Positions 14,551 through 50,590 of a DNA stretch of 64,000 nt are shown piece by piece. The DNA lies in contig JAGAED010000003.1 of NCBI GenBank assembly GCA_017613275.1, positions 68,747 through 132,746 of the forward strand, read 5' to 3'. Below the pieces are notes generated by a model. It saw only the letters and a program-made list of their open reading frames with translations. It searched no databases and had not been told where the DNA came from. Every line of letters starts with the position of its first letter. The stretch's first letter is position 1. Both the position numbers and the translations under genes were made by a program. Origin of the DNA: Clostridia bacterium (lineage in GTDB: Bacteria > Bacillota > Clostridia > TANB77 > CAG-508).

Positions 14551-14586
14551 AGTTAACTTTTTGGGACACTTTCAAAAAGTTAACTG
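14551..14586. repeat. GGGACAC-core palindromic repeat (agttaactttttGGGACACtttcaaaaagttaact)
   Basis: Perfect palindrome. Member of a dispersed intergenic repeat family seen at 10 or more sites in the window. Confidence 0.8.
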
Positions 14587-14644
14587 GACTATTTTTTCAC
14601 TCTTTTTATAAAAAAACATAAAATATAAAAAAGGAGTGAAAAAA

Positions 14645-15787
14645 GTGAGTTCTTTATATTTTGATAATAGTGCAACAACAAAAGTTAAACCAGAAGTGCT
14701 AGATGCAATGTTGCCATTTTTAAAAAAGGAATTTGGAAATCCATCATCAATGTATACATTAGGTAGAAGTGCCAAAAGAGCAATAGAAAGTGCCAGAACA
14801 AATGTGGCAAATTTAATAAACGCAAAACCAAATGAAATATATTTTACATCTTGTGGGTCAGAAAGCGATAATACAGCATTAAAAGGTATTGCTTTAAAGA
14901 ATAGAGAGAAAGGAAATCATATAATAACTTCAAAGATAGAACATCCAGCAGTACTAAATTCATGCAAAACACTTGAAAAAGAAGGGTTTGAGGTTACATA
15001 TTTGGATGTGGATGAACGAGGATTTTTAGATGTGCAACAACTTGAAAGGTCAATTACAAATAAAACAATACTAATAAGCATAATGTTTGCAAATAATGAA
15101 ATTGGAACAATACAACCAACTAAAGAAATTTCTAAAATTGCACATAATGCTGGAATAATATTTCATACAGATGCGGTTCAAGCTTGTGGAAATATTCCAA
15201 TAGACGTAGAAAAAATGGGGATAGATATGTTAAGCCTTTCAGGCCATAAAATACATGCGCCTAAAGGGGTGGGAGCGTTGTACGTGAAAAATGGAATTGA
15301 ATTTGAAAATTTTATGGATGGTGGGCATCAAGAAAAAGGAAAAAGAGCAGGAACGGAAAATGTTGCAGGAATAGTAGGCTTGGGAACTGCGTGTAATTTG
15401 GCAAAACAAAATTTAAATACACATATTAGGTATTTAACAAAACTTAGAGATTATTATATTTCTGAGATAGAAAGAAAAATTCCCAATACAGTATTAAATG
15501 GACCAAGAGACCAAAACATTATACAAAGACTTCCGGGAAATGCAAATTTTTCGTTTTTAGATATAGAAGGAAAAACATTATTGCTAAAATTAGATCAAAT
15601 GGGAATAAGTGCCTCAAGTGCATCAGCGTGTTCGAGTGGAAATCAAGAACCATCACATGTATTAACAGCAATAGGAAGAGATGAGGCAACAGCTAAGTCG
15701 GCTTTAAGAATTACATTTGGAGAAGATAATACAATAGATGATGTGGAGTATTTAGTAAATTGTATAGAAAAAATAATATTAAATTGA
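14645..15787 (+). CDS. cysteine desulfurase (NifS/IscS family, PLP-dependent)
   Basis: 'LYFDNSATT' N-terminus and 'SLSGHKIHAPKGVGALYV' PLP-lysine motif. RBS aaggag lies 9 nt before the GTG at 14645. Confidence 0.85.
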   Translation: MSSLYFDNSATTKVKPEVLDAMLPFLKKEFGNPSSMYTLGRSAKRAIESARTNVANLINAKPNEIYFTSCGSESDNTALKGIALKNREKGNHIITSKIEHPAVLNSCKTLEKEGFEVTYLDVDERGFLDVQQLERSITNKTILISIMFANNEIGTIQPTKEISKIAHNAGIIFHTDAVQACGNIPIDVEKMGIDMLSLSGHKIHAPKGVGALYVKNGIEFENFMDGGHQEKGKRAGTENVAGIVGLGTACNLAKQNLNTHIRYLTKLRDYYISEIERKIPNTVLNGPRDQNIIQRLPGNANFSFLDIEGKTLLLKLDQMGISASSASACSSGNQEPSHVLTAIGRDEATAKSALRITFGEDNTIDDVEYLVNCIEKIILN

Positions 15788-15841
15788 TTGACAAAAAAAT
15801 ATTGGTTTGTTAGAATTATATACAAGAGGAGGAAGGTTACA

Positions 15842-16069
15842 ATGACTAATGAAAAAAATCAAGAAGAGAAACAAAAGGATATAGGAGAATTAGCATTAGA
15901 AGAGTTGCACCAAAAAGCAATGGAAGTTAGAGCAAAATTAGATACAGCAAAGTATGAATTAATGCAGAATATTGCCAAAAGAGAATTAGCAAAACAAAAA
16001 ATAAGTGAACTTAAAGAACAAAATAATAAAAAAACAGATATAGAAAATAATATAGAAATATCAAATTAG
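15842..16069 (+). CDS. small hypothetical coiled-coil protein
   Basis: RBS aggagg before the ATG at 15842. K/E-rich sequence with no recognisable domain. Confidence 0.4.
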   Translation: MTNEKNQEEKQKDIGELALEELHQKAMEVRAKLDTAKYELMQNIAKRELAKQKISELKEQNNKKTDIENNIEISN

Positions 16070-16080
16070 GAGATAAAAAG

Positions 16081-49000: not shown

Positions 49001-49014
49001 AGGGTGATGAGTAT

Positions 49015-50472
49015 ATGAAAAAAGAATATGATGTAGCAGTAATAGGAATGGGGCCAAGTGGAGTGTTTTTAGCATATGAATTGATTCAGTTAAAAAAGGC
49101 TAAAAACATAATTTTAATAGACCAAGGGAAAAGAGTTGAAAAGAGAAATTGTCCAATAGAAAAAACTGGCAAATGTTTAAAATGCAAACCAAATTGCAAC
49201 ATAACAAGTGGTTTTTCAGGTGCAGGAGCATTCTCAGATGGAAAATTACTATCTTATCATTTATCTCTTTATAATGAAAAAGAGGAAAACATATACTTAG
49301 GAGGAAATGGTGGGTCATATATAAAAAAATATATGACCTATCAAGAAATAAAAGATTTGCTTTCTTATACAGATGATGTGTACTTAAAATTTGGTGCAGA
49401 TGTTAAATTAGAAGGAATGGAAAACAAGGAAGAAATAAAGGAACTTCAGGCAAAAGCTAAAAAAGAAGACCTAAACTTAATTGATATTCCAATAAGACAT
49501 TTAGGAACAGAAAAGGCACATGAACTATATAAGAAAATAGAAGATTATATAGAAAAAGAAGTCGAATTAAGATTTGAAACAACAGTAAAAGATATTTTAA
49601 TAGAAGACGGAAAAGCCAAAGGAGTAATAGTTCAACCATCAAAGGACAAAGAAGCAGAAGAAGAAATTATTTATGCTAAAAACGTAGTATCTGCAGTTGG
49701 AAGAAAAGGCGCAAAATGGCTTGAACAAATGTGTAAAAAGCATAAAATAAAGTCAGAGCTTGGAAACGTAGATATTGGAATACGTTATGAACTTCCAGAC
49801 AAAGTAATGGAAAAAGTAAATAAATACATGTATGAAGGAAAAGTAATTGCAAGACCGGAACCATTTAAAGATAAAGTTAGAACATTTTGCCAAAATCCTA
49901 GTGGATTTGTTGCTGCAGAAGTATATGACAATGGCTTAAGCTTGGTAAATGGTCATTCATACAAAGATAAAAAAAGCACAAATACAAACCTAGCAATACT
50001 CGTTTCACATCACTTTGAATACCCATTCAAAAAGCCAATAGAATATGGAATAAATATTGCAAATAACCTAAATGAATTGGGAAACGGAAACATAGTTGTA
50101 CAAAGGCTTGGAGACATTTATAGAGGAAAGAGAACATGGCCGGAAGAGTTAAAAAATAACTCAGTAGAAGCAACTCTAAAATCAGCAGTACCAGGAGATA
50201 TAACATTTGCACTAGGTTATAGAACAATGACAAACATATTAGAATTCATTAGGAAAATGGATAAAGTAGTAGAAGGATTTGCACATCCAGATAACTTGCT
50301 ATATGGTCCAGAAATCAAATTTTATAGCAATGAATTAGTAGTAGATGAAAAATTCCAAACAAGTATAGAAAACTTATACTCAATTGGAGACGGAGGCGGA
50401 CTAACAACTGGACTAATGATGGCATCATGCTCAGGAGTCCAAATGGCTAGAATATTAGATAAAATAATATAA
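49015..50472 (+). CDS. FAD-dependent oxidoreductase (COG2509-like uncharacterised FAD protein)
   Basis: 'YDVAVIGMGPSGVFLAYEL' dinucleotide-binding motif and a C-terminal 'GDGGGLTTG'. Confidence 0.65.
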   Translation: MKKEYDVAVIGMGPSGVFLAYELIQLKKAKNIILIDQGKRVEKRNCPIEKTGKCLKCKPNCNITSGFSGAGAFSDGKLLSYHLSLYNEKEENIYLGGNGGSYIKKYMTYQEIKDLLSYTDDVYLKFGADVKLEGMENKEEIKELQAKAKKEDLNLIDIPIRHLGTEKAHELYKKIEDYIEKEVELRFETTVKDILIEDGKAKGVIVQPSKDKEAEEEIIYAKNVVSAVGRKGAKWLEQMCKKHKIKSELGNVDIGIRYELPDKVMEKVNKYMYEGKVIARPEPFKDKVRTFCQNPSGFVAAEVYDNGLSLVNGHSYKDKKSTNTNLAILVSHHFEYPFKKPIEYGINIANNLNELGNGNIVVQRLGDIYRGKRTWPEELKNNSVEATLKSAVPGDITFALGYRTMTNILEFIRKMDKVVEGFAHPDNLLYGPEIKFYSNELVVDEKFQTSIENLYSIGDGGGLTTGLMMASCSGVQMARILDKII

Positions 50473-50484
50473 CTCGAGTAACCA

Positions 50485-50556
50485 GTTAACAAATTGGGAC
50501 ACTTTCAAAAAGTTAAGATATGACTTAACTTTTTGAAAGTGTCCCAATTTGTTAAC
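50485..50556. terminator. ~70-bp near-perfect palindrome built from two inverted GGGACAC repeat units; bidirectional terminator between convergent genes
   Basis: gttaacaaattgggacactttcaaaaagttaag-atatgac-cttaactttttgaaagtgtcccaatttgttaac. A further GTGTCCC core sits at 50565-50575. Confidence 0.75.
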
Positions 50557-50590
50557 CTTGTTTTTGGGGAGTGTCCCAGAATTCTAGGTT

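Follow-up and report, generated by a model that had tools for sequence, protein, structure and literature searches.

The GGGACAC repeats and their setting

The window, by which we mean the whole 64-kb stretch of DNA that was analysed, is a chromosomal piece of a Clostridia metagenome-assembled genome (MAG) with a guanine plus cytosine (G+C) content of 29%. Its genes include gltX, dnaE, gap, dnaG, sigA, mutL, miaA, ftsK and the gene for transfer-messenger RNA (tmRNA), and about 89% of its length is coding. Between these genes lie the elements considered here, a family of short palindromic repeats with the core heptamer GGGACAC, which an earlier note on this DNA had described as dispersed in at least ten copies.

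The heptamer is found 13 times in the window, compared with 1.29 ± 1.13 times (maximum 4) in 100 dinucleotide-preserving shuffles, and the repeats of the earlier note are thereby confirmed as real. Likewise, the 25-mer ACTTTTTGGGACACTTTCAAAAAGT has nine matches with up to three mismatches where none is expected, and an nhmmer profile made from the copies recovers exactly these 13 cores and no weaker members in the window. The cores group into nine loci (Table 1), at the places given in the earlier note, and all nine are intergenic; given the coding density, the probability of this placement by chance is about 2e-9. None of the 13 cores is genic, so the motif is not equally frequent within genes. 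Seven of the nine loci start 0–15 nt past a stop codon, in keeping with the description of the copies as usually following stop codons, and the other two start at 60 and 156 nt. The enrichment reported around 37.7–47 kb is also borne out, as a variable gene island there holds 7 of the 13 cores. Two details of the description can be made more precise: the three or four cores reported at 46861 are three (+, −, −) and not four, and the perfect palindrome of about 70 bp with an extra core at 50485–50584 measures 72 nt (50485–50556) and is accompanied by one core more. Independent assemblies of the same strain (L018–L022; L numbers designate the related loci that were compared) show the repeats at 99.8–100% identity, so an assembly artefact is excluded. 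Rfam 15 covariance models contain no family for the repeats, and a sub-threshold match of a plant microRNA-precursor model to the perfect palindrome was judged spurious.

The unit is an imperfect palindrome of about 31 nt, TTAAC-TTTTT-GGGACAC-TTYC-AAAAA-GTTAA, with a consensus that can be written out as T-R-A-C-TTTTT-GGGA-[CAC]-TTYC-AAAAA-G-T-Y-A. Units are found as singlets, as the 72-nt perfect inverted doublet and as triplets. Inverted doublets also occur in L001 and L008, and a tandem partial duplicate of the left arm is common (window 16496–16509; L001, L004, L006). On the strand that reads GGGACAC, two or three G·T (G·U) pairs lengthen the stem up to a CAC loop, and as a result the sense-strand RNA hairpin is the stronger one: at 14536–14600 the GGGACAC strand folds with −26.2 kcal/mol, compared with −19.1 kcal/mol for its complement. 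The z-scores of such folds are as low as −10.

For covariation analysis we aligned 50 distinct copies, drawn from related genomes as well as the window. As the heptamer was the criterion by which they were collected, GGGACAC does not vary among them; the T-run and A-run that flank it hardly vary, and the outer stem is variable yet complementary. A structure of 17 pairs has 72% of its cells paired, as opposed to 37–57% when the partners are slid, and the covariation score of 0.209 (0.151 in shuffles) was reached by none of 500 shuffles. For example, columns 10 and 42 pair as AU in 13 copies and as GC in 13. Covariation over these copies thus supports the hairpin. The core occurs as GGGGACAC in 14 of the 50 dispersed copies and as TGGGACAC in the remainder. 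In canonical REPs the hairpin foot carries a GTAG head. No GT[AG]G tetranucleotide is present at the 5′ foot of the hairpin described here, and outside the hairpin the 50 aligned copies show no conserved bases.

A Y1 transposase gene flanked by the repeats

The earlier note had raised the possibility that a cognate REP-associated tyrosine transposase (RAYT) is encoded elsewhere. Such a gene was found in relatives, flanked by inverted GGGGACAC hairpins of the host's own variant. Specifically, a Y1_Tnp gene lies between inverted hairpins (+ at the 5′ side, − at the 3′ side) at fetched loci from three independent Clostridia lineages, with L042, the fourth locus, showing them on its 3′ flank only. 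In L043 and L049 both flanks carry GGGGACAC, as does the 5′ flank in L005. The flanking copies keep the constant core inside the stem variant peculiar to each genome, and more identical copies lie nearby.

The gene in L005 (5262–6034) is split by one frameshift into open reading frames (ORFs) of 82 and 168 residues, the first of which matches Pfam Y1_Tnp (E 7.8e-7). Joined, the two ORFs give a single protein with the motifs NHAHF and YIHENPVKA. A repeat at 5148 (+) lies 114 nt upstream of this gene and another at 6053 (−) lies 19 nt downstream. The L035 gene (7081–7853) has an identical frameshift, after ...GKFMH, and identical split ORFs, and L017, which represents a sister species together with L005 and L035, has the Y1 gene at 99% identity. 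The joined L005 protein has 514 homologues, most of them intact, about 254 residues long and encoded in Clostridia MAGs; three of these, with their flanking repeats, are listed in Table 1.

The gene does not show the multiplicity of an insertion sequence (IS), as there is one locus per genome and no tnpB adjoins the Y1 gene. Among 20 contigs from different samples that carry the gene for P0265, the neighbours are the same at all six places shown, a constancy that places the gene at one fixed locus. The contigs that encode P0286 also have one common context. In sister genomes (L005/L035/L017 and L042) the gene occupies a homologous place, and in the more distant Clostridia (L043, L049) it is found in other places.

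All 23 aligned members of the protein family match the full Y1_Tnp model. The NCBIfam model REP_Tyr_transpos is matched with E values of 1e-17 to 1e-21 and 63–76 bits, below its equivalog cut-off of 80 bits, and the NCBIfam IS200 model gives E values of 1e-2 to 1e-4, with no match for one of four proteins. The HUH histidines are conserved as H-A-H (H-V-H in one protein), as is Y-I-H-x-N-P (the YIHNNP form). An AlphaFold2 model (pLDDT 84.9) has its best fold match in 4ER8, the E. coli TnpA_REP with its REP hairpin bound (E 1.2e-6, template modelling score 0.66, root-mean-square deviation 3.0 Å), followed by IS608 and ISDra2 TnpA. A sequence profile searched against PDB finds 4ER8 only (E 0.013). 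The C-terminal region of about 100 residues was modelled as a helical domain; it has no significant Pfam match among the 23 members, and HTH_24 and HTH_40 appear at E ~0.1 in a few of them.

We compared the protein by BLASTP with a published alignment (PMC3733652) of RAYTs and of TIRYTs, the RAYT-like proteins whose genes are flanked by terminal inverted repeats. Nine of ten TIRYTs match at E 1e-18 to 1e-32 and the tenth, the Acidobacteria-group aba 3477, at E 1e-8, whereas three RAYTs match at E 1e-4 to 1e-9. The best matches are gbm 2474, pca 3049, dau 2153 and sml 1152, which are 25–34% identical over the whole core in alignments that begin at residue 1. By sequence, the protein is far closer to published TIRYTs than to canonical RAYTs.

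Distribution and turnover among relatives

Orthologous regions were fetched by way of homologues of ThyX and of the FAD-protein. L030 (~90% nucleotide identity) has kept repeats at the 14.5-, 16.5- and 18.5-kb loci, and L023 (ThyX 93% identical) and L031 (92%) are without them there. The copy behind thyX (window 18503–18531) is the exact reverse complement of L030 9520–9550 within collinear flanks, and the hairpin has accordingly undergone a small in-place inversion. In L023 there are ordinary terminators behind the WG-repeat gene and behind thyX. L031, which has no GGGACAC, carries different long palindromes at the ends of these two genes (5300–5385 and 11150–11225); these contain GGGACGTG or GGTGACAC (GGGACGTGTAC or GGTGACACTTCCCA) and are possibly sister repeat families. 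Copies per locus also differ, with one in the window and two in L005 behind the beta-CASP gene, and three in the window and one in L005 ahead of the GH15 gene. Several relatives have zero copies over 21 kb, and L026–L029 and L031–L034 lack GGGACAC cores. This pattern of presence and absence, copy-number change and flipping shows that the family is lineage-specific and dynamic, which is unlike a conserved regulatory site.

An exact 20-mer scan of a genome collection gave 11 loci, four of which are chance matches in coding DNA of unrelated phyla. The others are confined to the rumen Clostridia MAGs RGIG6952, RGIG2630 and 'Clostridium sp.' bin.36. The same scan gave six loci on rumen or gut contigs in metagenomes and none in viral contigs, and BLAST searches of plasmids and phages with the repeats found no match. 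RGIG6952 has up to nine cores per 8 kb, amid unrelated housekeeping genes. Another candidate was rejected: the C-terminal remnant of an IS200 transposase at L029 19572–19775, in a Hadza gut relative without GGGACAC, has its own G+C-rich 3′ hairpins and is unrelated.

Loss of the gene at a variable island

The repeats of the window are concentrated around an island that is the former home of the transposase gene. L042 encodes P0241, which is intact and 87% identical to the L005 protein, and the window segment 44519–45493 is 84.6% identical to the DNA that lies behind this intact gene and its 3′ repeat cluster. Just ahead of this homologous segment, the window has the 15-nt sequence GGGAAAAAAGTTAAG (Table 1), which corresponds to the last bases of the right-hand repeat. 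In addition, the window cluster at 46861–46957 is homologous to the repeat cluster at the 3′ flank of the L042 gene, and the 20 nt that follow the repeat at 37715–37752 (to 37768) resemble the 5′ flank of the L005 Y1 gene. These comparisons indicate that the Y1 gene has been deleted at the island in the lineage of the window, leaving the 15-nt scar. The enrichment of repeats around the island therefore reflects the gene's former location. With the gene lost there, the copies of the window may be stable relics, unless a second copy of the gene exists elsewhere in the genome.

The island itself (37715–47041) is a hot spot between a beta-CASP gene (36068–37714) and a GH15 gene (47042–49000). It is empty in L036 (7946–7956) and L038, where these two genes are 10 nt apart, contains one small gene in L037 (7288–7959) and L039, and has differing contents in L005/L035, L040 and the window. 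In L005, L017 and L035 it is this island that harbours the Y1 gene. An 86-nt module composed of a repeat end, a terminator, a promoter and a ribosome-binding site is present twice in the window (44519–44604 and 46947–47032, 91% identity). Its copies bracket BspA-type leucine-rich-repeat genes at 44.6–46.86 kb, a block with 552-nt internal repeats. A cyclic di-GMP (c-di-GMP)-I riboswitch at 39695–39783 (71 bits), with its own promoter, precedes a gene for a 219-residue membrane protein of no known family; this gene and its neighbour are not in L005.

The island also includes two pilin-like genes in opposite orientation (37845–38353 and 43891–44400), with a prepilin-type N-terminus and, in one, a Big_2 domain. 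They share inverted 5′ ends of 281 nt (86% complementary) as well as a perfect inverted repeat of 40 nt. The upstream region of each contains about 120 nt enclosed by inverted repeats of about 29 nt, and this enclosed segment is a direct repeat across the two loci, despite the opposite orientation of the genes. Such an arrangement is what invertible promoters, one ON and one OFF, would be expected to show, and the tyrosine recombinase encoded between the pilin-like genes (41871–42785) more likely serves these putative promoters. Both pilin-like genes on the + strand are frameshifted, either after the start codon and ahead of the hydrophobic prepilin helix or directly behind this helix (38071–38200; 44617–44700), and pseudogenes, errors of assembly and slippage sites are all conceivable explanations. 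A single gap distinguishes L019 (99.8% identity) from the window.

The repeat loci and transcription terminators

Table 1. Repeat loci of the window, Y1 genes of relatives with their flanking repeats, and the scar in the island (positions are those of the window unless an L number is given)
Feature	Position	Strand	Surroundings
Singlet	14551..14586	+	Inside 21-bp hairpin 14546-14590, then T-run 14592-14597; terminator-like anatomy
Singlet + partial left-arm duplicate	16496..16546 (repeat 16510-16546, duplicate 16496-16509)	+	Conventional terminator upstream
Singlet, GGGGA/TCCCC variant	18503..18531	+	Hairpin 18504-18530, T-run 18535-18541; dG −17.6, z −4.9
Singlet, TTAC variant	37715..37752	+	First base right after stop codon; separate terminator 37771-37803
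Singlet	39626..39659	+	Terminator of upstream gene 39479-39507 before; promoter of c-di-GMP-I riboswitch gene 39657-39685 after
Singlet	40463..40497	+	Stop codon 3 nt before; terminator 40506-40538 after
Singlet	41725..41760	+	At stop codon of RhuM gene; terminator 41769-41801 after
Scar GGGAAAAAAGTTAAG, 15 nt	44515..44529		Last bases of right-hand repeat, just ahead of L042-homologous 44519-45493
Three-repeat cluster	46861..46957	+ 46861-46898, − 46891-46926, − 46924-46957	Terminator/promoter module 46947-47032 after
Cluster, convergent genes either side	50483..50588		Inverted doublet = perfect 72-nt palindrome 50485-50556; third copy − 50553-50588
P0265 gene (58% identical)	L043 6001-6825		Identical 30-mers CTGTTTTTGGGGACACCTTCCAAAAACAGC at 5940(+) and 6878(−); third copy 1645(−)
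P0286 gene (58% identical)	L049 10001-10762		ACTTTTGGGGACACTTCCCAAAAGTT at 9829(+) and 10781(−); third copy 11808(−)
P0241 gene (87% identical, intact)	L042 1608-2426		Repeat cluster at 3′ end (3′ flank only)

The repeats stand in several relations to transcription signals. Five loci have the repeat after the stop codon and ahead of a separate terminator, one has it behind a terminator, and one has it between a terminator and a promoter, that of the c-di-GMP riboswitch gene. At two places (14546–14597 and 18504–18541) a T-run follows the repeat hairpin itself; the fold of the 14551 singlet has a free energy (dG) of −26.2 kcal/mol and a z-score of −7.3. The inverted doublet at 50.5 kb folds with −58.5 kcal/mol and is predicted to be terminator-like on both strands.

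Relatives carry an ordinary terminator in place of the repeat at three loci (14.5, 18.5 and 50.5 kb). The 14551 locus has an ordinary terminator in L023 and keeps the repeat in L030. Behind thyX, L023 again has an ordinary terminator and L031 a different palindrome, and in L035 and L040 the place of the doublet cluster at 50.5 kb is taken by a plain bidirectional terminator. The repeat at 16496–16546 is present in L030 and not in L023 or L031. At L049 9829–9849 the final codons of uvrA and its stop codon overlap the repeat on the 5′ flank of the Y1 gene, so that the repeat provides the end of a housekeeping gene.

Among the other features of the window, the tmRNA gene (51597–51952) is about 1 kb from the 50.5-kb doublet cluster. 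A DUF4258 (BrnT-like toxin) gene is located at 1933–2259, and a long gene with 63-nt periodic YD/RHS-type repeats occupies 57000–64000 and continues past the end of the window.

Interpretation and alternative explanations

We consider it likely, with good confidence, that the GGGACAC elements are short non-autonomous REP-like hairpin repeats and the dispersed partners of a TIRYT-type RAYT-like Y1 (HUH) transposase. The repeats are previously undescribed; their class, REP-like and of TIRtron type, is known. Of the earlier reading, which called them REP/BOX-like or similar to miniature inverted-repeat transposable elements (MITEs), the REP-like part stands, in the form of a TIRYT/TIRtron-type repeat without a GTAG head, and the BOX and DDE-type MITE parts lack support. 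By analogy with related enzymes, we infer that the Y1 enzyme mobilises the units. When single-stranded, the GGGACAC strand would adopt a hairpin of about 14 bp; the stem is A/T-rich, and GGGACAC occupies the upper stem and the CAC loop. By analogy with the TnpA of IS200/IS605 elements such as IS608 and with E. coli TnpA_REP, the enzyme might then recognise the hairpin and the GGGACAC motif on single-stranded DNA and might cut and rejoin it so that units are copied or moved. Units would persist where they are tolerated, either in the few bases between a stop codon and a terminator or in the terminator's own place, and a hairpin with a T-run at such a site could terminate transcription or protect the mRNA 3′ end.

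Several observations weigh against this interpretation. No Y1-like sequence is detectable in the 64-kb window, and the Y1 gene of L005 and L035 is frameshifted, which makes it a real pseudogene unless the shift is a recoding site. The three loci shared with L030 are unmoved at ~90% identity, and mobility is thus slow at best. No target-site signature or duplication could be defined by comparing filled with empty sites, the 'empty' relatives being too diverged in their intergenic DNA. All seven singlets of the window are in the sense direction relative to genes, but three singlets of the MAG RGIG6952 are antisense, and no single strand rule covers all copies. Finally, the conserved motif is at the top of the hairpin and the canonical REP head is at the foot, so recognition may differ from that modelled by 4ER8.

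One alternative is that the elements are simply intrinsic terminators or mRNA 3′-end hairpins, kept alike by selection or gene conversion with no transposase involved. The two singlets with stable hairpins and T-runs, the doublet called terminator-like on both strands, the conventional terminators of relatives at all three such loci, and the G·U pairs that strengthen the sense-strand RNA hairpin (−26.2 vs −19.1 kcal/mol) would all be accommodated. However, termination needs neither an invariant 7-mer nor 25 nt of identity among copies, and five loci already have a separate terminator next to the repeat, with one copy between a terminator and a promoter. The antisense copies in RGIG6952 are also at odds with this explanation, which gives no cause for the repeats on either side of a Y1 gene in three lineages, and we regard it as improbable. 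A role as a DNA uptake sequence, or as a site bound by a transcription factor or a nucleoid protein, is extremely improbable. Uptake sequences are frequent inside genes, and those of Neisseria can form inverted pairs in terminators. The invariant core, at times in inverted pairs in terminators as in Neisseria, and the pilin-like genes close by are reminiscent of uptake, but none of the 13 cores is genic. Placement after stop codons and within operons misfits a regulon, and the family is expanded in some lineages and has zero cores in the close relatives L026–L029 and L031–L034.

Two further explanations involve other recombination enzymes. Each gene of the 37.7–47 kb island is bounded by repeats, a Phage_integrase protein adjoins the repeat at 41725, and the unit can be read as two inverted arms about an asymmetric centre. 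The repeats could accordingly be core sites of the adjacent tyrosine recombinase (41871–42785) that bound exchangeable cassettes, either integron-like or resembling pdif modules. L005 is indeed without two such 'cassettes' (37.8–40.47 kb), with the gap exactly between repeat-plus-terminator units, but the deletion junction lies inside about 90 nt of direct homology that includes the terminator, so ordinary homologous recombination suffices to explain it. The units, of about 31 nt with an invariant centre, have no attC features, and the local recombinase is a small XerC/D-like protein situated between inverted pilin-like genes with invertible-promoter-like upstream segments. These structures, and the repeats found amid housekeeping genes with no recombinase near in the window, L001, L006, L008, L011, L043 and L049, led us to drop integron-like cassettes, and we judge the recombinase explanation as a whole very improbable. 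It is also quite improbable that the elements are MITEs of a DDE-type IS with ends starting GGGACAC. Doublets do resemble two terminal inverted repeats about a tiny core, and presence/absence polymorphism is observed, but the singlets are complete hairpins rather than half elements, filled sites show no consistent target-site duplication, no DDE transposase is near any copy, and there is no match in plasmid or phage collections or viral contigs. The gene that does lie between the repeats encodes a Y1 HUH enzyme.

Beyond the association with a TIRYT-type enzyme, the GGGGACAC hairpins may be the dispersed partners of RAYT group 1 / subclass 2.1, the biggest and most poorly understood group of RAYTs, for which previous surveys had seen no REP-like sequences, and may preferentially replace terminators, acting as 'mobile terminators' at the 3′ ends of Clostridia genes; we put this forward as a tentative and rather doubtful proposal. 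The partnership with a Y1 transposase itself, if correct, extends the REP-transposase relationship to uncultured rumen and gut Clostridia, gives a clear instance of a repeat that forms a full hairpin around a GGGGWSAS motif, and shows a lineage that retained the repeats after loss of the gene at that locus. It also shows that such hairpins can occupy normal terminator sites and that they mark gene boundaries within a variable surface-protein island. Many Y1 homologues are on contigs of 1–3 kb, which indicates that the repeats probably break metagenome assemblies.

Comparison with known systems

Within the literature library searched, no paper on REPINs or RAYTs in Firmicutes was found, and a search for the repeat motif string returned nothing informative. 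The system can be compared with four that have been described. It resembles the Proteobacterial REP/REPIN elements and their RAYTs (E. coli YafM, 4ER8) in having short extragenic imperfect palindromes as singlets and inverted doublets, a single-copy Y1 gene at a fixed locus between its own repeats, the class-2 Y---NP signature, and 4ER8 as the best fold. It differs in that the Clostridia repeats have no GT[AG]G head at the foot, and the sequence likeness to RAYTs is weak (E 1e-4 to 1e-9). With the TnpA proteins of the IS200/IS605 family (IS608, ISDra2), it shares the catalytic fold and a hairpin as the recognised DNA, but the Clostridia gene is not multi-copy and is without tnpB, the repeats are dispersed without the gene, and the IS200 model fits poorly.

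RAYTs of group 1 have been noted in Clostridia (Bertels et al. 2017, PMC5581495), and 20 of 26 published TIRYTs belong to TnpA_Y1 subclass 2.1 (Quentin et al. 2018, PMC6006769). As points of likeness, the proteins of that group are long, bear a C-terminal extension and are reported from Clostridia. The C-terminal domain of subclass 2.1 is a helix-turn-helix resembling Bac_DnaA_C, HTH_23 or HTH_28. REP-like hairpins were not found beside subclass 2.1 genes (PMC6006769), whereas the Clostridia gene is flanked by clear hairpins that have dispersed copies; membership of the present family in the subclass is a candidate assignment.

The closest counterparts are the RAYT-like genes flanked by terminal inverted repeats, and not by GTAG REPs, that were described by Di Nocera et al. 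(2013, PMC3733652) and named TIRYTs, the corresponding elements being TIRtrons. Many TIRtron repeats share GGGGWSAS, some are self-complementary, and some are dispersed as singlets, dimers and clusters (PMC3733652). GGGGACAC fits this published motif, and the Clostridia system is alike in having a Y1 HUH gene between inverted repeats with GGGGWSAS and copies dispersed in the same three forms. Unlike the published TIRtrons, it is found in uncultured rumen and gut hosts with ~29% G+C, its stems are A/T-rich, and the C-terminal 100 residues of its protein do not align with the published TIRYT tails. Its unit also differs in being a full hairpin with the motif at the top, situated at the 3′ ends of genes and in the places of terminators.

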